Source: Dicyema japonicum (taxonomy: Eukaryota; Animalia; Dicyemida). From it: DNA of 32,954 bases. Shown here piece by piece: positions 1-32,640 of this stretch (positions are counted from its first letter, which is position 1; every line of letters starts with the position of its first letter). Position numbers and translations under genes: made by a program. The notes under the pieces were generated by a model. The model was not told the origin of the DNA. It ran no database searches and worked only from the letters and a program-made list of their open reading frames with translations. The stretch spans positions 893,468 through 926,421 of the forward strand of contig RDEW01000020.1 in assembly GCA_011109175.1 (NCBI GenBank), given 5' to 3'.

Positions 1-890
1 TTCTTTGCTTTAAGTATTTCTGCTTTCTCTGAAGCTGATCCTGGATTTGTCGCACTCATTGTAATATTGGAAGGGGAGAAGCTATCTACGCAGGTGGCAT
101 CCCAGGCTAGGTACTTCCCAGCATCCCACGGGAACAGAGTCGCTCCATCCGGCTTTCTGTTTGCCGTGGCAAGTACTAGGGGCTCCATCTGGACAGGGAA
201 TCTGGCAGCTTCTAGTCCCCACGCAATTGCACTATGTCTCAGGCTTTTTCCAGCGCTCCTTCGGCAGGAAAGTGCGTGGAGTCCTTTCGCGTCGACTATT
301 CCTCCACATCTACAGCGATGGATTGCGCAAACATCGATTCCGAGGCGGACGCAAACCCCAATCCTCGTGGAGTCATCGTCCAGAAAAGTTCCGAGTGAAA
401 TGCACGGTGATACTTTGAGCCATGCACCACTTACGTTTGTTGATGCGGTAGCCAGACAAGCCAGACGATGCTGGTCGTGTTGTGGTTTTAGCTCATCGAT
501 GGTCCTCGAACATACAAGTTCGTTCCAGTCTCGTTGTTTGTTGAAGTTCTTCTGGAGTCCCAGATTAAGTCCAATCCAAACATCGTGAGCCATGCATGCC
601 ATTGGTTCAGTTAAGTCCAATCCAACATCCGATCCGTTAATGTAGCGTAGGATCTGGTGAACTAGACCGCGGGAAGCATATGTCGAAGACAAAATGGCTG
701 GGAGGGCGAGTTCAAGTGGCGAGCGTATCCCAATTCCTCCATAACGAAGTGGTAACTTGCATTGGGTCCACCCTGCTTTATCCAGAGAGATGTTAAGTGT
801 TTCTTCAACAGAGGTCCTCAGCTTCTCATTGATAACTCTCAAGAAATCCATGTCTGTGAAACATGGGGATGTCCGTAGAAAAAAAAGGAG
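1..890 (-). mobile_element. CRE-like (REL-endonuclease) non-LTR retrotransposon, C-terminal part of ORF, 5'-truncated, runs off the window edge
   Basis: Manual minus-strand translation is open for ~296 codons from 890 to the edge: LLFFLRTSPCF...CKLPLRYGGIGIRS...SGAWL...HRCRCGGIVDAKGLHALSCRRSAGKSLRH (CCHC knuckle + RH)...MEPL...RKPDGATLFPWDAGKYLAWDATCVDSF (PD..D nuclease). It is absent from the ORF track because there is no stop in the window. Confidence 0.9.
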
Positions 891-1139
891 TTAATTGATT
901 ATAACTTAAAATTTTATAGCATTCGGGAGTCGTACTTTGATAATATTAGAACCACAAAGTGAGAAATTGATTCGTTTCTACCTTGAGTTTCAAGTTCTTC
1001 GTCATTTTAATTCAATGAGTTCTTGTATTAACTCTTCTGTATCTAACCCTGATAAAAACCACAGATTTATCGTCCAATCTGCAATATTCCAATAAATTAA
1101 TGTTATTTTATTTATGCCATTAAAACAGATTGATTAATC

Positions 1140-3200
1140 AAATTAGAGAAATAATTAAGGAAATGTCCGAGATCTACATCGTCTTAACAATTCTTGCATT
1201 ATGTAGTTACTGAATGGAATATTTTTTTAATAATTCGGAAGATTTTTTGTCGGAATATGGTTATAAACAATTATACACAGGGAATACAACTCCTAGCAGT
1301 CGAATGAGGATTACCTATGTAAACTAGAATGAAGAAAAACCACTATTTTCGATAATTTATGCAACTTTATATGAATACGGAAGCCAGATTCTGCATCCCT
1401 GAAGAAATCTAGGAAGACAACTGAAAACAAACATTAGATTTTTCAAGATGTTTATACACGAATGAAATTGGCTGCCAAAAGGATCGGCAGATTCTGCCGA
1501 TCATTAGGACATCTTGTCTCTTTTGATGAGCCATATTTCACAGCATTAAGATCGTGTGAATTCACCCATAGCATTTCAATAAACGGCCAATCGGCCGCAA
1601 TGATGAATTAATAAGATAGTTAAAGATAACTCTTAAATTATCAGTTGAAGAAACTCCATTCGGTGTTATTAAACATTCAAGTTCTATTAAACTTTGGAGA
1701 TATCTTTTCCGGGACCCTATCGAGTTCCGGATGAAAGACTGGAAGATATTCCAAAAGATAAGACCGATAGACTCTTAGGATATGATGAAATACTTGGCCG
1801 ACAGGCCATGTATGTTGCATGAAAGAAATCCTTCCTTACAAGATAATCCCCCTCAGAGCTGAAATTGTTCACGAACTCGGGAACAAGAAACGGGTTGTAC
1901 TGTTTCACTATATTGGGTTAACGTTTTGCAATCGCCGTTAGCACATATGCTAAAGGATGCTTTTAAGTAGCACCCCTCTGCATTTTCATCCTTTCATCTG
2001 CAAGGCCAGACTTGGAAAACCGTGAATCAGTTCTGTCGAACTCAGGATGTGGCATTCGAAAAGCATTATATGCTCACATCAGATTTGATCGCTTCAACCG
2101 ATAGTCAGGATTTCTGGTTACTTCATGAACTGATTACAGGTATCATGAACGTTTACGGTTTAAAACAATCGGAATATTCGAGGTATATCCTCAGGATGTT
2201 GGGTCCACGTTTTATCATCTTTCCCAATTATCATGGCACGTTTGAATTTAAACGTGGAATTATGATGGGAAAGGAAATAAAAGCCCTTTCGAAAATTACC
2301 AATTTGGGAGCTTGTTATTCTCACCTATATGAACAAAGTAAATTTACTCTATTCAGGTGAGCCAACACTAAAAGTCCCGTGAAAATTTATCTACATTGGA
2401 GGAAATGATCATCTCGCCAAAAAACCAGAGGAATATCTGATTCTGATTACAGATATCCACATATCTGTGGGTTCTCAGATATCAGAAGACAAACACGGAT
2501 ACTCAAACATAGCAGTCCGATATTGTGAGAAGGTAATCTTTCTTGGAAATTCTGGATACAGAAGCCCCATTGGGAAAGAATGTGTTGATGGTGGTTTGCC
2601 ACAATTTGAAGCGCCTTACTTCTATGGACGCCCGGGATTTGTCATGTTAGCGATTATCAGAAGGATTATAAAACGTTTCAGGAAGGAGATCACTTTGATA
2701 AGCTATCTGACTGATCGAACAGGAAGAAATAGAAAAGATTGACCATGCAGATAGTTTCCCGTGTTGCACGTGCTTTGTCAAATCATCTAGGAAAGTTAAA
2801 TTCCAGCCAATCTCTATTTTCTCTCAACTTTTGGTCAAATCTCATTAAACTGAAATGCTTCCCATAAGGAAGGCTACCATTTTATCCTCCACAATAACGC
2901 TCATGGTCTATGATCTAGTTTCCCATATAATTTTCATATAAAGACTTAAAGAGGACTCTCTTAGAATCAGCAAAAATGAAAGGGACACAATACTCAGTTA
3001 ACGCACATATCCTTCAGTAAATAGGATTCTGATTGGTTTCATCAATGTGGTTCACATGATTGGATGCCAATTTACTCTGGGAACTTAAAGAAGCACAATT
3101 ATCCCATATCAACCGGTTTACCAACCTCAGGTAAGTTGGATAATGGCGGCTACCGAGCGAATGAAAAGTTATTAGGCTCTCCAACTCACTAAGACACAAA
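1140..3200 (+). pseudogene. Endogenous narnavirus-like RdRp (degenerate non-retroviral EVE); boundaries approximate
   Basis: Colinear motifs across frameshifts: LAAKRIGRFCR (~1470-1500); GYDEILGRQAMYVA*K (~1778-1825); motif F PLRAEIVHELGNKKRV (1849-1896); WVNVLQSPLAHMLKDAFK*HPSAFSSFH; motif A SDLIASTD (2079-2102); motif B RGIMMGKE..K...NL (from 2253); motif C *KFIYIGGNDH (2380-2412); GSQISEDKHGYSNIAVRYCEKVI (from 2470). Confidence 0.85.
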
Positions 3201-3329
3201 AATTTTCTAACAACAAATTATATATAATTTTAAGGTAAAAATTTAATTAACAATAAAATTAACAAATTATATTAATTTAAAAATCAAGTCATTTAGAAAA
3301 ATTCCTTGTTCCCCAAATCTTGTGATAGG

Positions 3330-3720
3330 CTGCTTACGATTCCTTAGTACAACTACAATCTGCGAACCAAGTAAAGGTAGAATGAAAACATGTAAACTCC
3401 ATGAAATAAGAAAATTATCGAAAAGATTCATACAAGACGTCGACTAAAAAAATCAAGAATTTATACGGCCGAACTATCAAACCTTAATAGCGAAATTACA
3501 GAATTAATCAAGAAAATAAAATTGGACGGTTGGAACAATTTCATCACAAAAATTAACCATCGAACAAGACTAAAGGATTTATTGGGCACTTTACGTGGAA
3601 TTCAGTCGAAACAAAATAGAATGGAGACAACCCACACCACCAGTATTGACAAGAATAAAACACCACGTGATTTCATTCATCAGGCAGATGTCATAATGGA
3701 CCACTACGCAAAATGAATCA
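3330..3720 (+). mobile_element. I-group non-LTR retrotransposon fragment (linker between APE and RT)
   Basis: LSNLNSEITELIKKIKLDGWNNFITKINHRT...QADVIMDHYAK resembles the EN-RT linker of I/Ingi-like ORF2. No catalytic motif is present in this fragment. Confidence 0.55.
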
Positions 3721-3879
3721 ATAGATACGAACAAATGCTCTCGTCCATGCAAATTGAAAAACGTTCAACAGATGTCGAAAAACTCATCAAAAACTCTCCT
3801 GCCAAAGGGCTTGATGGAATCTGCATTTAAAACATCTGAAAATACAAATATAAATACACCTTCTGATGTTCCTGCATAT

Positions 3880-4430
3880 GCTATGTGCAGGATCCGAAAA
3901 AAGTCCAAGAGCTTCGTTCTTAAAGGAGGAAGAATGTATCTAAAAGACCCAGAAGGCGATAAATTGGTTATTGTTTCGGACAACGTTGAGGAAATGAAGT
4001 TTGTTGCTACTCAATATCATGATTTAACACATTGTGTTCAAAACATCCTAGAAACATATTGTAAAGATCAATCCATCTGTAAAAAAAAGTTATTCGCAAT
4101 GTTGTATCCAATTGTGAGACATGTCTTTTTGCCAAAAGTCTCACTCAAATTCATGATTTAACACTGTTATTCCAACTGTGTTGCATGTGCACCATTTTTG
4201 GTACATGAAGTTTGTTGCTACTCAATATCATGATTTAACACATTGTGGCCAAAACATCCTAGAAACATATTGTAAAGATCAATCCATCTGTAAAGAGAAG
4301 TTTTTCGCAATGTTGTATCCAATTGTGAGACATGTCTTTTTGCCAAAAGTCTTAAGGAATATAATGAAGACTTGCACTCGTAATAATGGTTATTCGTGGC
4401 TTTTAACGACTATTGATTGATGCTTGATAA
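3880..4430 (+). mobile_element. Degenerate rve-type integrase (HHCC zinc-binding domain + start of core), Ginger/GIN-like
   Basis: HDLTH...(frameshift)VIRNVVSNCETC gives an HHCC finger. It is followed by NNGYSWLLTTID*, typical of the start of the DDE core (xNGYxWILTxID). Confidence 0.6.
3994..4352 (+). repeat. 148-bp direct repeat (3994-4141 and 4205-4352) duplicating the HHCC finger
   Basis: Both copies run atgaagtttgttgctactcaat...tttttgccaaaagtct with only a few substitutions; the spacer is 63 bp. Confidence 0.95.
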
Positions 4431-7919: not shown

Positions 7920-8160
7920 TAAGGCATCTGAATGGCCATGCTATTTCCCCTAACAATAGCCAACGAGATACGTTCTCGGAACCAACCAGTCTCTCGCGGA
8001 TCCTTGGTCACATCTTGAATCATGGAGCCGATCTTACGAACCAACTCATCTGCTTGGGGGCCAAGGATTCCTGACGTTTCCACCGCGAATGGAACAAATA
8101 TATACTCCTCCGAAATTCTCTGGTACTTCCTCCTCTTTCGTTCCTCGGCCTTCTTCCCTA
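7920..8160 (-). mobile_element. CRE-like element, extreme 3' end
   Basis: KKAEERKRRKYQRISEEYIFVPFAVETSGILGP...WFRERISLAIVRGNSMAIQMP*, followed by an AT-rich tail. Confidence 0.85.
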
Positions 8161-8224: not shown

Positions 8225-9740
8225 TTACCCACGGATTATTTCAGTGCACATCTACTGGCCTTCAAAAAACCTAAAGGTGGGGTCCGCTCCATTGCGGTCG
8301 GCAACTATTTCAGAAGACTGACAGCGAAAATCGCATGCAGTATTGTCTGTCCGAGATTATCTGAAGAATTTCCTTTCTCCAACTGGGGTGGTGTAAGTAA
8401 CGGATGCGAGACGGCAGTGCATGTTGATAGGTGTTTCTTTAGACAGAAAGACGAACAAAACCCACACATTGGGGTCAAACTGGACATCTGCAACGTCTTC
8501 AATTCACTGTGGAGGGATCAAATTTTCGAAACTACAAGCAAAAGAGCCCCTGAACTTATTCCACTTGTCTACCTCGTTTACGGAACTAACTCTACACTGG
8601 TTTTTGGAGATAAGATTATTTATTCGGAGACTGGAGTCAACAAGGGACCCACTTGGTCCACTTCTCTTCGCTCTGGCCATCGATGAAATTGTCCGCTCAA
8701 TCAACACAAAACTAAACCTCTGGTATCTTGATGACGCCAACGATTGGAGGGCCGTGGAGAAAAGTTTTTGACGTCCTGTCACAAGCCGTGTCGCACTACG
8801 AAACCTCGGACTTGAGATAAATATAAAGAAATCGGAGCTAATAAACATCACATACTCGGAGAGTGATTTCATCAGCGTGGTCGAGTCTTTCAACTCGGTA
8901 TTACCTGGAATTACTGTCGTACCCTGGGAGCGGACATACTTTCTTGGGTGTCCACTTGACGAAAAGGAACTGCGGAGCCATCTACTAACAAAGGAGGATG
9001 AACTTTCTAGAGTTACGAAGAAACTCTCTTTACTCCGATGCTCATACAGTGTTCTTCTTCCTTTTAAAAAATAGCATCGGCTTACTTAAACTCCTATACG
9101 CTTTCCGTTGTTTTCTCTTGCTTCAAACATTGTGACATCCTCTTGTCACTGGATAGGACATTGAGAAATCACCTGAATTGCTTCTAAACATCCACTTTGA
9201 CGTGCCGAGTTGGAATCATGTAAGCTTCCTACACGCCTCGGAGGTGCGAGTTTCAGGTCGGCAATGGAAATCTGTCATCGCTCTCAAGTGGGAGTCTTTT
9301 GGTCCATGATTTCCTACGTTTTCCAATCGGACTTTCTTGGGAAAAAGTCTTCGACGAAACTCGTCGCGAATGGTGTGAAACTGGTTTGGAAACGCCGAAC
9401 GATCCTTCGAGGCAACGAGACTGGGATAAGATCTACTCCAAGAATATTTTCGACGTGCTAAAGTTTGAGGCCAACCAGCATCGTCTTGCATGCTTTATGT
9501 CCACCGCCAACCATGGGAGCGGAGCATGGCTGGATGCACTCACGTGTTCCTCCCTGGGGACCCTTTTGGACGATGAATGTTTTCGGATTAAAATCGCACA
9601 GCGCCTGGGAGTTGATGTTTGCTTCGAACACCAATGTTGTTGTGGAGGGATCGTCAATGCCAAAGGGCTGCATCCGCTTTCGTGCAAAAGGAGTGAGGGC
9701 AGAGCATTCCGCCACGCTGCTATGAACAACATTGTCAATT
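8225..9740 (+). mobile_element. CRE-like non-LTR retrotransposon, degenerate RT + zinc knuckle, 3'-truncated
   Basis: LLAFKKPKGGVRSIAVGNYFRRL; VKLDICNVFNS; GV(Q)QGDPLGPLLFALAI; LWYLDD; LPTRLGG; SGAWL; HQCCCGG...GLHPLSCKRSEGRAFRHAAMN. Several frameshifts. Confidence 0.9.
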
Positions 9741-10089
9741 TCAGCATCGAATTCTCCATATTCCTTGAATTTCTTAATTTTCAATAATTTTTCTTTTTTT
9801 CATATAACTAGAACCATTCCACCTTAGATTTAATTAGTTAGTTACGAGCACTTCGTTGTTAAATTGTTACTCATAAGTATATGAATACTTAGGGTTCTGC
9901 TTGTTCCGTCTTGTGCCGTTCTCGAGACTATATTTACCCTTTGAAAAATCCGTCCATGGGGCTGTGTGGAATAGTCCAGCTAAGTTTTGTGACGACACCC
10001 TGATCGCTGCTTCTGCTATGAAACATGCCATAATAACGTTTAGAAAACACAGGCAACTCATCTATGCACTATCAGACCTTTTTTGTCCG

Positions 10090-10621: not shown

Positions 10622-11797
10622 CAGTGGATTTTTCTTTAACGAAAATTCGAATTTATTTATTTTTACACATAAAATCAGTTATTAAAAGTTTTTTTCCTTT
10701 TTTTACATCTAGCATGACATTTCTTAATTTACCCATAATTGGTATATGTGAAGGTGAATTTTGAAGAATAAACCTTTCCATAGTCTCAATTGCGCACATT
10801 GCATCAGCGAAACCAATTTTCTCTATATCGTTATCATTTTTATTCTCTTGATCTTTATCTTCACAAGACTCAATTGTACCCAAAATTTCGTCATCATTGT
10901 TGCTGCAAATTTTATAGGTACAATTTTCATTTTCATTATCATCTGAAACCGGAGAGTCCTCCTTAATAGTAGAGTCATCATTTATCTGCTTTGCCCAATT
11001 GTTAAATGCCTTTTCAAAGCAATTCCTCACTGTCGTTCTTGAAATATCATCCCACGCTTCAATAATCAATGGTATTGCATCAACTAGTTTAAAGCTTCTG
11101 ATTTTTTCATGAAAGTTAATTGTATCTTCTCTTTCAGTTAACGTAATATTCCTCATCAGGAGATTTTTATACTTCGCTTTAAATGATCTGATAATTCCCT
11201 GTTCAAGAGGTTGTATTTTTGAAGTGGTATTCGCGGGTATGAAGAAAAAATCAATTTTACTGAATTTTTTATCACTACAATGAACAGGAGCGCAGTCCAA
11301 CATAAGAAGAATGTTTCGATTTTCATTTTTCATTTTTTCATTAAGATTGTTCATCCAAATTTCAAACAAAATACAATTCATCCATGCTTTTTTGCTGTTG
11401 CCATATGTTAACGGAAGTTTTTCAACATTCAAATTCTTCATCCGACGAGGATTTTTTGATTTTCCAATGATAAATGGGTCTATTTTATCCCCCCAATAAT
11501 TAGTACACAACATAAGTGTAATTCTGTCCTTATAAAACTTTCTTGATGCTCTTACTTCAGATTCAACGTTTTACGTGGCCTGCATTTAAAAAACAATGCG
11601 GTTCCGTCGCAATTAAACACATCTTTGAGATCATAGGATGACATTTTCGATAAAAAATCAGCATGGCTTTCATATAAAAATATAGGATTGACTAATTGTA
11701 CTAGATTTTATTCTAAATTTATTCTTAAAAGAATTAATTCATGTACTTGAAGTTTTAAAATTCGGAAATTTTTTTCGTTAAATTATAAAACGTACTG
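10622..11797 (-). mobile_element. pogo/Tigger-family DNA transposon, deletion derivative with both TIRs and TA target duplication
   Basis: Ends are TA|CAGTGGATTTTTCTTTAACGAAAA (10620 onward) and, as reverse complement, TA|CAGTACGTTTTATAATTTAACGAAAA (from 11799). DDE_1 region: FNCDGTALFFK, RITLMLCTN...PFIIGKSKNPR, KKAWM, LLMLDCAPVH, IQPLEQGIIRSFK (ORF 10653-11513). Most of the N-terminal HTH region is missing. Confidence 0.9.
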
Positions 11798-17769: not shown

Positions 17770-18008
17770 TGTCTTGAAAGAGTCAATACAGTTTTTTGCC
17801 TCAGTTCGATATTTAGGAGATAGAAATCATGTGAGTGACTGGAAGATGAACCTCAAAGTCGACAATTTATTTCTTTTGATTACTCGCCGGAACCTCGACT
17901 TCCGGATACAAAAGGTTTATTTCTTACCCAAGTATTTAAGGAACCGAAAGAGCTCATTTAAAGGTAACCAAGATCAGTCCTATCCAAAAAGTCTTCCTTT
18001 TTAAATAT
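17770..18008 (+). pseudogene. Possible decayed paralogue of the neighbouring kinase
   Basis: QFFASVRYLGDRNHV-SDWKMNLKV resembles [15 protein letters not shown][HRDLKTENILI]DWKMNLKI with the catalytic loop missing. There is a 22-nt exact match between 17836-17857 and 20308-20329. Confidence 0.3.
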
Positions 18009-18018
18009 AACCTCTATG

Positions 18019-18635
18019 CGGCTGGGACTAAAAGTATGTGTACCTCACCCGTGCCGATGTGGCGTCCTGATAGACTGCTCTGGCCTGCACCCTCTCGCCT
18101 GCAGGAGGAGCGCTGGCAGATCCCCAAGGCACAAGGCTCTGAACGAAATTGTCAGGCGAGCTATGGATGCTGCTGGATACTCGGCCATTCTTGAACCGGT
18201 CGGGTTATGCAGAAGTGACGGGAAACGACCGGACGGGATGACCATATTTCCATTTGAGGCCGGGAAACCACTGGTTTGGGATGTGACATGTACAGACACG
18301 TTCGCCCAGAAAAATCTTCACGAGAGTGCTACAAGGGCCTGTTCAGCCAAACTCGAAGAAGGCCAAACTCGTTAAATACGTCGACCTTCCCGATGATGTC
18401 AAATTTGTTCCCCTTGCTATGGAGACTTCCGGATCCTACTCCCTCTCTACACTCGAGTTTTTCGGACGTTTTGGAAACCGGATCACCTCATGCACTGGAG
18501 ATCTCCGTGAACGCCGCTGGCTATTTGAGCGAATTTCGCTCGCAATTTTGAGAAGGAACAGCCACGCAGTGAGGGCGGCAACTACCTGACTTCTATTGTT
18601 TAAATTTAAAAACTATATAATTAAAAAAAATAAAA
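18019..18635 (+). mobile_element. 5'-truncated CRE-like insertion with A-rich tail and 10-bp TSD
   Basis: HPCRCG...GLHPLACRRSAGRSPRHKALNEIVRRA...LEPVGLCRSDGKRPDG...LVWDVTCTDTF...FVPLAMETSG...ERISLAILRRN...*. AACCTCTATG flanks it at 18009-18018 and 18636-18645. Confidence 0.92.
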
Positions 18636-23897: not shown

Positions 23898-24626
23898 ATG
23901 GACGGGTCTCACACCAATCTGGATTTGACCGTTGAAAAAAGGCTAATTTCTGAATGTTCAAATTCCAGCGAGGCTTATTCTCAAGATATGTCGGAAGAAA
24001 CTATTTCACAGAATGCCGAACACATCACATGTGATGAGTCCGTCCATAAGTCACTCTATAATTCAAACTACTCAAGTGTTTATATTAATGAGGGAGATCA
24101 AAGCTGTATCCTATCCGAATCACAGTTACATCCCACAACTATTAATCATCTCAACAAAGTATTCAACAAACCTTTGTATTCCACAATTCCAATCCCTTTC
24201 ACGAGAAAATCAGAGAAAAATGAAGGTATAAAATGTATTATGGCTCCCTCGTTCCAGAAATCAGTTAAATACTCAGTCAAAAGCTATAATTTTGAGGAAG
24301 GCAGAGACGTCTTGGATTATCAAACTTTAACCCAATCATCTATCCAGAATGGAGTTAATTCAAAGCCATTACTGTCAGAGAATATATTGAATGATCAAAA
24401 GCAGAAGAGGGTATCCCTGAAGTTACTTTACACACTGGCCTGTTTTACCTTTCTGGTTAATCCCATTTTTGGTTGTTATTCGTTGGTCTATGCTAATCGA
24501 TGTTCTGAAGTAGATGATTACTATTATGCGAACAAATCGTCAAAAATATCATATTATATTTCAATTACTGGAATTTTGATTAGTGTTTGTGCTGGAATCC
24601 CCCTTGCTCTTTATTTTCTTAAATGA
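23898..24626 (+). CDS. CD225/dispanin (IFITM/PRRT/SynDIG-like) membrane protein, 242 aa, apparently single exon
   Basis: Clean ATG-TGA ORF: long Ser/Asn-rich N-terminus, then two hydrophobic segments LLYTLACFTFLVNPIFGCYSLVYA...YYYANKSSKISYYISITGILISVCAGIPLALYF with CD225-like spacing (P.G..A/S...A...S..A/S). Confidence 0.6.
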   Translation: MDGSHTNLDLTVEKRLISECSNSSEAYSQDMSEETISQNAEHITCDESVHKSLYNSNYSSVYINEGDQSCILSESQLHPTTINHLNKVFNKPLYSTIPIPFTRKSEKNEGIKCIMAPSFQKSVKYSVKSYNFEEGRDVLDYQTLTQSSIQNGVNSKPLLSENILNDQKQKRVSLKLLYTLACFTFLVNPIFGCYSLVYANRCSEVDDYYYANKSSKISYYISITGILISVCAGIPLALYFLK

Positions 24627-25950: not shown

Positions 25951-28900
25951 TTAATGATCAAAAACAGCGACATTAGTACAATCCTTTGTTTTATATACTC
26001 CAACAAGTCTATCACTCAACTCAAACATGTGTGATCTGAGTGATATAATAATAAATTGAGCATCACATGTCCATTTCTATAATAACCAAAATACAATAAC
26101 CTTAACATAATGTGCTATAATAGACACATTTCTGTAATCCAATGCTGCATCAATCTCGTCCATTACATACAATGGGGATGGCTTATAATGATGGAGGGCA
26201 AAAACTAGTGCTAAACTACTCATAGTCTTCTCTCCACCACTCAGATTCGATATATTCTTCCATGTCTTCCGAGGAGGTCGCACACTTAATATAACCAATG
26301 ATCACCTAAATACAACTCCCTCTGAGAAGGGATTCATAGAGTCCACTAATTCTAGTTCAGCATCACCTCCTAGAGTTATCATTTGGTACATCTCCTTCAA
26401 TTTTAGTGAAATAGCATCAAATCCAGCCATAAATTCGCTCAAACGTTTCTTCTTTGTTTCCTCCATGTAATTTTGTTGATTACTCCTCACTGCAGTTAAC
26501 CTCTCCAGAACATCCACTCTCCGCAAGTATAACTCTTTCTACGATATCCCCCAAAATTAACCTTTTCCTTATAATCACGAATAGCTGCCATGTTCGGGTT
26601 CATCACATTCAGCTCTTTTTCTAAATTCTTAATAGAGTTCTCAGTGTCAATTATATTCAGTGAAGTGAGTTCCTCGACAGTGATGACTGGCAGCATCTCC
26701 ACAACCTCATCAACTTCCTTCATGGAAAGTTTAAGGATCAAAATAACCATAGAAAACAACCTCAGAATCCCAATGCTCTATTTTAGAGTACAATCCTTAA
26801 TATTTTCATAAATTGTGTCATATTTTCCCTTCAATGATATTTTCTCTCGTTTTAGATCACCCTCTTGTGTGGCCATAGAGTCCAACTCCTCCTGTAACTC
26901 TTTCAGTCTGTTACCAAAACCAACAGCTTTTTCCTATCAATTAATGTCAATCTAACTGTTGACTCTTTGCTGGCTTTAATCAATTCTGAGGCCCTTTGAT
27001 CAATCTCTGTCATTTCCTTTGAGAGTTTCTCCAGTTTGTCCTCCAAATGAGTCCTATCCTTTTTCAAAGACTCTAAACTCTCAATATTCTTCTTTATACG
27101 CCTAACATTAACACAATCTAAACATTTCACATTTTCTTTCATCCAATGATAGCTTATCCAACTCGGATTTAACAGCAGACAGTCGACTGGTGCTCTCATC
27201 AACAGCCTTTTGTGCCAATGTAAATCGAGTCCCACGAATGGAAGCAAGTTTAGAATACAAACTCTCAACATGTGCTTTCTGTTCCTCACTGACCTTTATC
27301 TTTCTCTCCATTTCTGTTAATAATACAACAACAAACCAACAAGACATCCCTCTAATCTGCTTTTATATTCCGCCAATGCCTTTTTATCAACCACAACAGA
27401 GGCAGCCTTCTTCTTCCAATTTATAATCTTATTCTTAGACAAACTTATGTTATCCTCACATCCCTTCACTCCACATCAAAAATTACCTTTATTTCCATCT
27501 TTAATCTCTCCAAAATATGTTCAATGCTACTCTTATCACTCCCAAGCTTCTCTATATCAAGGTTTACTTCCCTTAATTGTGAGTCCAACTCTGTTATTTT
27601 ATCAACCATCTAATTACAAGACTATGACTACCTCCTGAAGCTTCTGTTCTGATATAAGTAAGGTACTTGAATTAACTCCCTTATTATAGTCAGCAGAAGA
27701 CAACCCCATCTTATTGCTCACTCGTTTTGTCCCTCCCCCACTCAGAGTCCCTAAACTATGTTATTAACAGTATACCAGAAGTCTCTATCAATTTTCCATC
27801 CAAAGTAACCACTCGATACCTAACTGACCCAAACGCTAAGGCAGTGGCCTTGTCAATGTCATCAGCCACCAAAGTATTCCCAATAGCAAAGAAGAAGGCA
27901 ACACTATATTTATCATCAGTTGGTCTTATCAGATCATACAACCGTTTGGCCCCTTTCGGTCTTAGATAATTACACCAAATTACATGTCAACTTTCTTTAG
28001 ACTTTCTGATTTCATTTTGTTAATAATATTCAACACAATGAACGTATATGAACCCAAATTACGACTTTTTAGGAACTGAATGGCTTTCTCTGCAGTCTCA
28101 TAGTCCTCCACCACAATATTGTCTAGTCTAGAACAAGCAGTTGATATGGCCACGTCATACTTAGCATCAATAAGACCCAAATCCCCCTATTAATTAATAA
28201 GAAAGTGTCCACCAATCTTCCAACAATTCCTGGTAGTCTTCCCTGTCTTTTCTCCTCCATAAATGTCTTCATAATACTTCTACTCTTATTTGCCGAAGAA
28301 TAAGACTTCATTTCCTCTATTTTATTTCTATCTTGTCCAATCTCACAATAACCCCCTTATTAACCTTAACATTCATCGCTCCAATCTTATTCTTCAACTC
28401 CTTCTGTACTGTATTTTTATTTATTACTTCCTGGGAGATCTCTGACAGTTTTTCAAAATGTTCAGTATATGCCCTGTAATATTACACAGACTCCCACTCT
28501 GTCTTAGCCTTTAGCGTCTCTTGTAACTCACCCAATTGTCTCTCTATAGCATTGGCTTTAACGTCCGCTGATTCTGTCTCACTCTTGAACATATTAAACT
28601 CAGACTCTGCTATTTCATACTATAATAAATAAAATCCTCAACATTATGTTTGGTTGAATCAGCCTCTGTCTGTAATTCTGTCAATATCTTTTCATGTTTC
28701 TGAATTTCCAGTTGAACAGGCTTTAATAAAATTGAACTCCACCTTTGTGGCTGATTTCAGCTCATCAATGACAATTTGCAGATTCTCGTTGTTTTTTGCA
28801 TGTTCAGTCTTCAGTTTTTCCAAATACTCAGACAATTCTTTTTGTTTCTCAACATGAGTGGTAGACCGTCGAGTACACTGCTCACTCTAATGAATACTTA

Positions 28901-30158
28901 GAAGTGAAATACCTCTGTTTCATTATGCTTGATTGAATCGACAACTTGTACTAGTTCCAGTTTAGTGTGTTTCTGGTCCTCTCTGACCTTGGTATCCTCA
29001 AATTCTAGCTTTTTGAACTTTTGTCGAGCATCAGACCCGACTTTATTAGCTTCTTTAAAGTGTCTGAATTATAAACAACAGTACTTTTGTGTCTCATTAT
29101 ATTCATTATTAATAGTGCTCTTTGCGGAATAATATTCATTCAATTTTGCATCACAGTCATCCAATTTGACCTTCAAAGACTTCTTCTCGTCTTCACCAGT
29201 TTTTATACGACCCTTTATATCAAATCTACAATTTCTAAAGTATTATACATGTTTTTATTAAAAAGTTTAAATTTATAAACAGTTTGAGAATTCAGCAGGC
29301 TGAGATAGTGAATAGCTTCATCTCTGGCCTCTCTCAGTTCGTTCTTTTCAATTTCTGACTGTTTTGTCAATGTGAACTTGCATCACCCCAAACAACTACC
29401 ATGTTAACTTTGGCATCAGAGAGTTTAGCTATTCTATCCTCATAAATGTCAATAATTCTTTTGTATTTGTTCGACCCAATGATATCCTCTAGGTATTCAA
29501 GCATCCCTTCGTCGTTCTCTCCTACAGAGATTGGTTTCATAAGGGAAATCTGTTCAACCTCTCCCTATCATTATATCCTTCCATTTCACCTGTAAGATAA
29601 GAAACCGGTTATTCTGAATTCCAATTCCACATTGTTTTAGATGACTGGCGACCTGCTTTGCTGAGATTTTCTCGTTGTCATGATAATAGTTAGAAACCCC
29701 TTCTTTGTTGACAGTCCGACGAATTGTGAACTTTTTGTTATCGTCGGTTTGGTTAACGTTAATTTGTCTGAATTCTATAGAGACTGAACAGCTATGAATG
29801 TTTGAGAACGATGAGCTGTTGTGGATTAGCACTGCCAGGTTCTTTGAACGTATCTTTTGGGCTCTAAATCCAAAGACAAATAGAATGGCATCGATAATGT
29901 TTGACTTTCCACTTCCATTTGGTCCGACAATACAAGAAAAGTTCTATAATGAAAAAATAAAAATACATTGTGGAATGGACCCAGTCGGTTGACTCCAGCG
30001 TAGGATTTGAAATTTTCCACTACTAGATAGTCGATTATGAAGCGGCTTTGTGGATTGAGATCGTCTGCTAATACAACATCTTCTTCAATCTCTATTTGTC
30101 CTAAGGACTCAACAGAATCAATATTATTGGGATCGAAATCAACTGAAGAAACTTGCAT
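25951..30158 (-). CDS. SMC4: Structural maintenance of chromosomes protein 4 (condensin), ~22 tiny introns
   Basis: ENFKSYAG, Walker A GPNGSGKSNIIDAILFVFG, NRFLILQ|GEVEQISLMKP, GMLEYLEDIIGS, hinge GRL|GDLGLIDAKYDVAISTAC and RVVTLDGKLIETS|GTLSGGG, signature NLSGGEKTMSSLALVFALHHYKPSPLYVMDEIDAALDYRNVSII, QFIIISLR. I walked the frame exon by exon; three local lesions are described in the findings. Confidence 0.97.
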
Positions 30159-30196: not shown

Positions 30197-30278
30197 CTAT
30201 TTAAATATATTTAAATTAAATAATAATAATATAATAATAATTAGAAGAGTTAACTTCCAACTCATCCTTATCCCTCTC

Positions 30279-30821
30279 NNNNNNNNNNNNNNNNNNNNNN
30301 NNNNNNNNNNNNNNNNNNNNNNNNNNNNNNNNNNNNNNNNNNNNNNNNNNNNNNNNNNNNNNNNNNNNNNNNNNNNNNNNNNNNNNNNNNNNNNNNNNNN
30401 NNNNNNNNNNNNNNNNNNNNNNNNNNNNNNNNNNNNNNNNNNNNNNNNNNNNNNNNNNNNNNNNNNNNNNNNNNNNNNNNNNNNNNNNNNNNNNNNNNNN
30501 NNNNNNNNNNNNNNNNNNNNNNNNNNNNNNNNNNNNNNNNNNNNNNNNNNNNNNNNNNNNNNNNNNNNNNNNNNNNNNNNNNNNNNNNNNNNNNNNNNNN
30601 NNNNNNNNNNNNNNNNNNNNNNNNNNNNNNNNNNNNNNNNNNNNNNNNNNNNNNNNNNNNNNNNNNNNNNNNNNNNNNNNNNNNNNNNNNNNNNNNNNNN
30701 NNNNNNNNNNNNNNNNNNNNNNNNNNNNNNNNNNNNNNNNNNNNNNNNNNNNNNNNNNNNNNNNNNNNNNNNNNNNNNNNNNNNNNNNNNNNNNNNNNNN
30801 NNNNNNNNNNNNNNNNNNNNN
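30279..30821. other. Assembly gap (N run)
   Basis: Continuous Ns. Confidence 1.
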
Positions 30822-32640
30822 AAGGCCTCACGAGCATGGCCGGAATTCTTGTAAATAGAGAATTCAGGTAGAGAGTGTAGAAACTTTTTGACATAGGAGC
30901 TACCAGCCACTAGCGATGATAGGTATGAAGGGAGAAAAAGCTCCACAAGGTTCCGAATTCCAAGTCCTCCAAGTCTCAATGGCAGCCTGGCTTGCTTCCA
31001 TAAGTAATCTTCGAACCGGACGTTGAAAATACGTTCTGCTGTCGTACGGAAGATCTGGTTAATCTATGCTAGTTGCTCACACAGAGTGAAGTAGGGAGCA
31101 GTCCTCACGACATATGTAGGCCTCTGTACGTTGAAACTGTTTTTCAAAAGGAATAATGCTGTATGCAAGTCAAGTATACACAAGCGGTCCAGAGTCTTTC
31201 CGAGTAACAGTTGTTATTCAGGCATTGCTATTCCCATCGAGTTTATGGTGATTTAGGATCCGAAGTATGTAATTTTTTCATTGGGTGTGGAAATACTTCC
31301 AGGCAGTAAATTTCCGAAACATTATAATACTTTAAAATACTTCTTTTTTGAAAGTCCGTAATTGTAGATTTCGCATTTAAATGTATTTTAATTCTAGTCC
31401 AGCTTCCAACAATAATAGAAGTATCACTTCCAAATCCCGAAAAATAGTATCCCGGGGTCCTCCGAGGACCGCATTATCCAGAAACCATAAGCTGAGCAGC
31501 GAGCGCGGAAGTTTGGTGATATTCTCTTTTGCAAGACAAAACAATAGGGGTCTAAGGGGATCTCCCTGTTGCACTCCAGAATATGAATAGATTAGGTAGT
31601 CACCGAAAAGTAAAAATGAAGGTAGGTTGCATGACTGATTCATAAATTCAAAAATATTATGGGATCTCTCAACACACGCCTCCAGGAAATTGTTCCTTCT
31701 TACACTATTAAAGGCGTTCTTGATGTCCAGTTTGACCAGGATATGTGCCCGGGAATTTTCTATATGCGATTTATGAATGACCTCACTTAATGTACAGCGC
31801 CCTCGCATTCCAAGCGAAAACAAACTCCTACTTAAGAAGAGTTCAAGAATTATGTGACGAGTGGAATAGANNNNNNNNNNNNNNNNNNNNNNNNNNNNNN
31901 NNNNNNNNNNNNNNNNNNNNNNNNNNNNNNNNNNNNNNNNNNNNNNNNNNNNNNNNNNNNNNNNNNNNNNNNNNCCAGGAAATTGTCCCTTCTTACACTA
32001 TTAAAGGCGTTCTTGATGTCCAGTTTGACCAGGACATGTGCCCGGGAATTTTCTATATACAATTTATGAATGACCTTACTGAATGTACAGCGCCCTCGCA
32101 TTCCAAGCGAAAACAAACGCCTACTTGAGAGGAGTTCAAGAATTATGTGACGAGTGGAATAGATTATCTGGAGGTAATTTTAGCAGCCCCTTTTCTGAAG
32201 ACAAACCGACCGGANCGCATTCCAAGCGAATACAAACGCCTACTTGAGAGGAGTTCAAGAATTATGTGACTAGTGGAATAGATTATCTGGAGGTAATTTT
32301 AGAAGCCCCTTTTCTGAAGACAAACCGACCGGAACTGGTCGTACTCCGCCGCCCTTCTTATCGAAGGCTATCAAATTGGCGGATAACAGGAAAAGGCGGG
32401 AAGAACTCAAGACAGGATCCGGTACATAAGTGGAGTAGTTGAATTCGTAGGACAAAGTCCTGATCTCTTACGGACAAAGAGGTTAGATCCTTCAGGTAGC
32501 CAGGTCTCATTCCGTCGAGCCCACTACTGCTGGAGCAAAATTACGTATTGCGAGGAGAACTTAAATCGTTTGATGCAATCAGGGGACTCACTCCAAATGG
32601 GGGAGCGACTTGGCGTAGGTTTTTGGAATGCCAGTGGATG
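30822..32640 (-). mobile_element. CRE-like non-LTR retrotransposon RT region, degenerate, with gap-associated duplicated segments
   Basis: SSGLDGMRPGYLKDL, NLIAFDKKGGGVRPVPVG, LVKLDIKNAFNSVRR, SGVQQGDPLRPLLF, LWFLDN, WKQARLPLRLGGLGIR. Confidence 0.88.
31871..31974. other. Assembly gap (N run)
   Basis: Continuous Ns. Confidence 1.

Follow-up and report, generated by a model that had tools for sequence, protein, structure and literature searches.

A stretch of 32,954 nucleotides (nt) from contig RDEW01000020.1 (assembly GCA_011109175.1; positions 893,468 to 926,421 of the forward strand), referred to here as the window, contains near its left end the remains of a viral gene for RNA-dependent RNA polymerase (RdRp). 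The best explanation, and one we regard as very probable, is that positions 1378-2589 hold a decayed endogenous copy of the centre of a narna-like RdRp, of the kind seen in the Matryoshka RNA viruses, lying in what is likely animal nuclear DNA. The stretch is a genuine non-retroviral endogenous viral element, and hence a derivative of a virus rather than a virus itself. A preliminary description of this DNA had proposed a narna-like (Lenarviricota) RdRp origin and had named homology searches as the way to check it. Profile and tblastn searches indeed give matches to Lenarviricota narna-like RdRps, and the database entries of the nearest named relatives carry the label narnavirus or narna-like.

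The peptides quoted in that description were each found on the + strand, in order and inside its coordinates. They represent the palm motifs of the polymerase in the order F, A, B, C, D, E, and both order and spacing are canonical. Their positions, together with the open reading frames (ORFs) that contain them and the lengths of these in amino acids (aa), are as follows.

1849-1896 (+), motif F-like string PLRAEIVHELGNKKRV, in the frame of ORF 1789-1941
2079-2102 (+), motif A, SDLIASTD, within the 129-aa ORF 1971-2360
2253-2276 (+), start of motif B, RGIMMGKE, within the 129-aa ORF 1971-2360
2389-2412 (+), motif C, IYIGGNDH, within ORF 2383-2742 (119 aa)
2470-2535 (+), motifs D and E, GSQISEDKHG...AVRYCEKV, within ORF 2383-2742

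The motif-bearing peptides are spread over three reading frames with stops between them, and the motif C triad reads G-N-D in the window. The longest two ORFs measure 129 and 119 aa, compared to 116 aa for the 95th percentile of the longest ORF in 500 shuffles. ORF length alone is not beyond chance, and therefore the case rests on homology.

With the 129-aa piece carrying motifs A and B as query, a phmmer search of 1.84 billion proteins returned 19 proteins at E ≤ 1e-3 (best, 8.2e-13; identity, 31-43%), most of them 840-1050 aa in length. A virus name occurs in the 90% cluster of five of the 19, and the remainder are unnamed contigs, mostly of ~3 kilobases (kb). The named matches are the RdRps of Matryoshka RNA virus 4, Matryoshka RNA virus 1 (which forms one 90% cluster with Plasmodium vivax narna-like virus 1) and Erysiphe necator associated narnavirus 52. 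We then searched 1338 six-frame pieces of the window with a Matryoshka-like profile of 19 sequences (P0001-P0021, minus the repetitive P0018 and the near-duplicate P0020). This profile matches seven colinear pieces on the + strand, with E values from 1.6e-28 to 1.6e-3, compared to 1.3 for the best of the 1338 pieces elsewhere in the window. Similarly, tblastn with the relatives gave colinear high-scoring segment pairs (HSPs) at 1378-1602, 1644-2327 and 2296-2589, in three frames, with summed E values down to 2e-49. Identity of the copy to its relatives is 33-45%, over up to 338 profile columns. The copy can be divided as follows, with frame labels given as coordinate mod 3.

1378-2589 (+), whole virus-derived stretch, a broken central RdRp (premotif, F, A-E), from tblastn; profile 239-626 of 955
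1438-1608 (+), piece 1, frame 1; profile 239-292, E 4.9e-5
1644-1751 (+), piece 2, frame 0, ETPFG...W..LFR block (six-frame piece 1620-1775); profile 308-343, E 4.7e-7
1733-1822 (+), piece 3, frame 2, ending at TGA 1820-1822 (six-frame piece 1691-1819); profile 345-373, E 8.7e-5
1825-1899 (+), piece 4, frame 1, motif F-like LRAEIV.ELGNK.R (six-frame piece 1789-1938); profile 376-398, E 1.6e-3
1896-1970 (+), piece 5, frame 0, YWVNVLQSPLAH block, ending at TAG 1968-1970 (six-frame piece 1863-1967); profile 398-421, E 9.6e-8
1971-2285 (+), piece 6, frame 0, motif A and the start of motif B (six-frame piece 1971-2357); profile 423-533 (piece 6 to ~525), E 1.6e-28; phmmer 8.2e-13
2296-2382 (+), piece 7, frame 1, remainder of motif B plus the linker, ending at TGA 2380-2382; tblastn HSP 2296-2577
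2383-2574 (+), piece 8, frame 1, motifs C, D and E (six-frame piece 2383-2739); profile 564-626, E 1.2e-24

Homology is limited to ~1378/1438 on the left and ~2589 on the right, and the copy corresponds to profile positions 239-626 of 955, which is ~40% of the polymerase and ~1.2 kb of a ~3-kb segment. The preliminary description had given the range as 1140-3200, which is too wide, and had taken the element to cover most of a genome segment, which these figures contradict. The flanks (900-1440 and 2560-3420) gave negative profile scores only, both by pieces and when read through with X, and their minus strand had no tblastn matches to the relatives. The missing N- and C-terminal thirds of the RdRp are thus absent from the flanks in any recognisable form; the C-terminal third would have been detected if it were there, because it is well conserved among the relatives.

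Two further lines of comparison extend beyond the Matryoshka-like profile. In a protein language-model atlas, queried with two separate pieces, the neighbours shown are viral RdRp clusters only; the A-B piece has Lenarviricota and mitovirus clusters at the top, and the C-E piece is led by tombus-like and Lenarviricota clusters. A degenerate DNA pattern, combining GDD with the narna motif B printed in the available part of a published report (PMC13515979), retrieved 120 IMG/VR loci. Their ORF products that reach 200 aa number 107, of which 103 form one BLASTP family. The narna-like RdRps of these loci (L005-L124) share a core with the copy, consisting of S-x-D-L-x-x-(A/S)-T-D, R-G-I-x-M-G, G..(I/L)(S/N)..K and (F/Y)-C-E. 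When the 43 products reaching 600 aa or more were combined into a profile, it ranked 1971-2357 first among the 1338 pieces (E 2.9e-5), with 2383-2739, colinear with it, in second place (E 4.8). These matches are much weaker than those of the Matryoshka-like profile to the same pieces (1.6e-28 and 1.2e-24, respectively).

Pfam and NCBIfam scans of the pieces matched no family. This blank result is uninformative, because intact relatives also lack an RdRp family match: a Pfam RdRp match is absent in five of them, as it is in two IMG/VR narna-like proteins. No match came from a word-indexed protein search with both main pieces, from a single-piece search for related loci in IMG/VR and metagenomes, or from an Rfam scan of the window. 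A PDB sequence search gave malate synthase only, at chance level, and was set aside. AlphaFold, run on the 129-aa piece without an alignment, produced a model with a predicted local distance difference test score (pLDDT) of 38, which was left unused. One other locus in the window, 8035-8154 (−), is matched weakly by many IMG/VR narna-like proteins (tblastn E ~0.004). We took these matches as chance, because the translation, which is rich in Arg and of low complexity, has no match to the Matryoshka-like profile.

The preliminary description had spoken of stops and frameshifts scattered through the region, and in the window these amount to five frame changes and three in-frame stops. The frame changes lie near 1606-1643 (where several stops also separate pieces 1 and 2), 1733-1751, 1823-1825, 1896-1899 and 2285. 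The stops are at 1820 (TGA), 1968 (TAG) and 2380 (TGA). Both TGA codons fall on conserved Trp columns of the relatives, and the TAG falls on a W/F/Y column. Such a pattern is what would be seen if the source was a mitochondrial, mitovirus-like replicon in which UGA was read as Trp, or if the copy itself is still read in this way, in which case the TGA codons would be no defects; with TGA read as Trp, the frame 2281-2754 is open for 157 aa. We consider this extremely improbable. Decay by a single transition (TGG to TGA, as expected in a decaying gene) fits better than an alternative code, because TGA=W explains neither the third stop, a TAG, nor the frame changes, of which at least three persist; the mitochondrial-code reading was rejected for these reasons. 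Moreover, three other conserved Trp columns read TGG in the window, and the relatives were recovered as long ORFs in the standard code. No piece matched Mitovir_RNA_pol (PF05919) at E values up to 10, although this test discriminates poorly, because the five intact relatives also have no match.

A live virus of this type would be expected to carry a complete open RdRp frame on an RNA of ~3 kb, and the copy in the window has no such frame. The decayed endogenous copy is probably a dead viral fossil. We infer that it lacks function, and nothing points to a present one.

Short reads from four runs, which represent one sample and one study (library type unrecorded) and contain 70-74% of the sampled words, were mapped onto 500-4000. 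Read contigs tile the region. They cross the homology border on the left (1349-1719) and on the right (1968-2746, 2020-2693 and 2090-2746), and they reach the repeats on either side (870-1086 and 880-1175 on the left, 2717-3372 on the right). Contig depth over 968-3300 is 6-56 in three runs (X1, X2 and X4) and mostly ~280-520 in the fourth (X3). For the flanking repeats, the corresponding values are 290-3265 and tens of thousands. Within the low-copy parts, viral and non-viral sequence have similar depth. At the three stops and at the frame changes near 1606-1643, 1733-1751 and 1823-1825, the listed contigs are identical to the window. Even in the reads, the element remains broken, and the decay proposed in the preliminary description takes the form of stops and frame changes, most of which are common to the short-read contigs. 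Two features looked for in an endogenous element are present: virus-derived sequence is continuous with host DNA in the reads of this one sample, and the reading frame is disrupted, by breaks of which the read contigs share the three stops and three of the frame changes.

The same data bear on whether the region is a chimera or contamination, in which the assembler joined cDNA or RNA of an exogenous virus to host sequence. The assembly is imperfect, with a difference of ~1% overall and small indels between window and read contigs, and with N gaps further along the scaffold. We nonetheless regard a chimera as very unlikely. A replicating virus would be free of the three in-frame stops and of the frame changes, at least three of which the short-read contigs show together with the stops; single contigs cross both homology borders into non-viral sequence of equal depth; and only 40% of the RdRp gene is there.

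The relationship of the copy to known viruses was examined in two trees, in both of which the copy was entered with gaps or X at every break. In a careful tree of 20 rows, the copy falls together with Matryoshka RNA viruses 1 and 4, Plasmodium vivax narna-like virus 1 and the unnamed P0002 (support 81/83). The same grouping was obtained in a quick tree of 31 rows, for which 10 IMG/VR narna-like sequences provided the root, with a Shimodaira-Hasegawa-like approximate likelihood ratio test (SH-aLRT) value of 95. Matryoshka RNA viruses 1 and 4 (associated with Plasmodium vivax and avian haemosporidians) are the best named matches, with 37-39% identity to the copy over profile columns, and they have the same motif order and the same motif C and motif E contexts. 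Unlike them, the copy in the window is DNA, is broken, spans only 239-626 of 955, and lies in a setting that appears to be animal and not apicomplexan. Identity to the copy peaks at 45% (223 columns) in P0006, which shares a 90% cluster with the RdRp of Erysiphe necator associated narnavirus 52 (P0143). This virus has an intact ORF on a 3.3-kb contig and belongs to the same ~1000-aa narna-like group, where it falls into a subgroup neighbouring that of the copy in the rooted tree.

GGDDH and YCEK had earlier been called hallmarks of the Narnaviridae. Rather, GGDDH and Y-C-E-K/R are typical of the Matryoshka-like clade. The wider narna-like profile includes other motif C contexts than GGDDH, and so does a published narna-like virus, to judge from the available part of the paper (PMC13515979). 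The Matryoshka viruses themselves are presented, in the portion of the original report at hand, as bi-segmented, narna-like viruses of haemosporidian parasites, whose nearest relative in 2019 was Wilkie narna-like virus 1, a virus of mosquito samples with an unsure host (PMC6953888).

The DNA around the copy supports a eukaryotic nuclear, repeat-rich setting. SMC4-like exons are found at 26903-29943 (−), including an SMC_N match at 29554-29943, and no N lies between the viral copy and the SMC_N exon. The 120 best matches listed for this exon are nearly all animal SMC4 proteins, with 46-56% identity; judging by the names, the exceptions are a Chlamydomonas and a Naegleria, at 46-49%, and no alveolate is among them. 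As the best matches show only 46-56% identity, the organism is one without a close relative among the annotated proteins searched. These matches point moderately to a divergent animal as the host. Of the animal nuclear setting proposed in the preliminary description, the eukaryotic, repeat-flanked DNA is thus confirmed, and an animal host is suggested by one SMC4 exon of at most 56% identity.

An alternative is that the scaffold comes from a co-sequenced non-animal eukaryote, such as a protist or fungal parasite or symbiont, so that the fossil records an infection of that organism. The nearest named relatives of the copy are indeed linked to haemosporidian protists and to a powdery-mildew sample, and both the limited identity of the SMC4 exon to listed animal proteins and the two non-animal rows leave room for such a source. 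We consider it unlikely, given that animals, judging by the names, account for nearly all of the named entries in this set of 120 SMC4 matches, with no alveolate. In addition, the flanking retroelements have contig depths of hundreds to thousands, as expected of the main genome of the sample, and the window also carries a pogo-type DDE_1 transposase and several repeats bearing reverse transcriptase (RT).

Non-retroviral endogenous viral elements form when viral RNA is copied by the RT of a host retroelement and the resulting complementary DNA (cDNA) is inserted. By analogy with other such elements, a host retroelement RT would have copied the RNA of the narna-like virus into cDNA, which would then have been inserted into germline DNA. 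The internal position of the fragment within the RdRp gene might be due to template switching or to later deletions. RT-bearing repeats are abundant in the window and occur within ~490 nt to the left of the copy, and a high-copy repeat whose family is not established lies ~700 nt to its right. Germline residence and fixation of the copy are inferred as well.

Several observations weigh against the interpretation of the region as a decayed Matryoshka-like copy in an animal genome. The terminal branch of the copy is long, at 2.2 and 1.3 changes per column in the two trees. Because of this long branch, and because the trees are without reference narnaviruses, mitoviruses and botourmiaviruses, the placement of the copy in one subgroup with the Matryoshka viruses should be seen as provisional. 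The frame change near 1896 lies under no listed contig. Contigs from each of the four runs depart from the window at two other defects: at the 2285 frame break their length differs by a number not divisible by three, and the motif C triad has a single-letter difference in its first codon. As the contigs differ at these two defects, the window overstates the decay. The four runs come from one sample, probably the one assembled, and they provide no independent proof of integration or fixation; one run from another sample contains next to none of the sampled words and is uninformative on fixation. Host identity is weak, in that the SMC4 exon matches no listed protein at more than 56% identity, and a protein of the same species was not found. 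Finally, neither a poly(A) tail nor a target-site duplication was seen at the homology borders, which therefore show no hallmark of retrotransposition.

Narna-like viruses lack both a capsid and a DNA stage, and which organism they truly infect is often a matter of guesswork when samples are mixed. When a virus lineage leaves a fossil in DNA, it becomes tied to the bearer of that genome, and orthologous sites allow the fossil to be dated. To our knowledge, the Matryoshka viruses have so far been known only as RNA, and they have been assigned to haemosporidians or left without a sure host. We propose tentatively that the window preserves a fossil of the Matryoshka virus lineage, lodged in the genome of an animal. 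If true, either this lineage once replicated in the germline cells of an animal, or an animal captured the RNA of a virus of its parasite. Such a fossil would provide the first minimum age for the Matryoshka lineage, together with a testable host link. It would also widen or challenge the haemosporidian-host picture, in which the assignment to malaria-type parasites rests on association, as far as the available text of the original report goes (PMC6953888).

Narna-like RdRp fossils in animal assemblies are already known, and the new part here is the Matryoshka-like lineage; the literature searched on the topic yielded no description of an endogenous copy from the Matryoshka group. In the assembly of the ant Linepithema humile, two narna-like RdRp endogenous viral elements are described in the part of the publication at hand, one of which has a 750-aa open frame and is closest to Hubei narna-like virus 19 (PMC6540820). 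Going by that published description, the ant elements and the copy in the window are the same kind of object, with the difference that the copy is a broken 40% fragment nearest to the Matryoshka viruses.

The immediate surroundings of the copy comprise two low-depth flanks and, beyond them, two high-copy repeats.

892-1377, no strand assigned, low-depth non-viral left flank; no profile match, contig depth like that of the viral part, joined to the repeat edge by contigs 870-1086 and 880-1175
2590-3300, no strand assigned, low-depth non-viral right flank with an A/T-rich end (3190-3300); no profile match, bridged by contigs 1968-2746 and 2717-3372
3-890 (−), high-copy retroelement fragment (post-RT domain); contig depth ~100x that of the viral part
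3400-4161 (+), high-copy repeat, family not established; depth rises from ~3308-3424 onward

Within the left flank, clustered length differences of 1-5 nt between window and read contigs occur at 1137-1302, which suggests assembly indel errors or allelic variation. In the right flank, 56 nt of the A/T-rich segment 3203-3260 are replaced by 19 other letters in contigs of three of the four runs. Assembly and reads, or alternatively two alleles, differ here by an indel.

The ORF at 3-890 (−) matches two other parts of the window by BLASTP, namely 9224-9787 (E 3e-39) and 30861-31063 (E 2e-16), the latter adjoining an RVT_1 ORF. More generally, the Cys/His-rich post-RT domain is present in at least four diverged copies on both strands: 3-890 (−), 9224-9787 (+), 17968-18375 (+) and 30197-31063 (−). 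The window is a patchwork of retroelement fragments, with N gaps at 30254-30850 and near 31850-31980 inside post-RT copies. In the right high-copy repeat, ORFs 3405-3716 and 3697-4161 have no Pfam match, and a direct repeat of 163 nt (3994-4156 and 4205-4367; 93% identity, 211 nt apart) is found inside it. A 242-aa ORF with a Met start and a hydrophobic end, but without a Pfam match, lies at 23898-24626 (+). GC skew is strongly negative across 26-29 kb. The transposase mentioned above corresponds to a 305-aa ORF at 10653-11570 (−), with a full-length DDE_1 match (E 1.9e-34); it is of the pogo/Tigger type and apparently intact.

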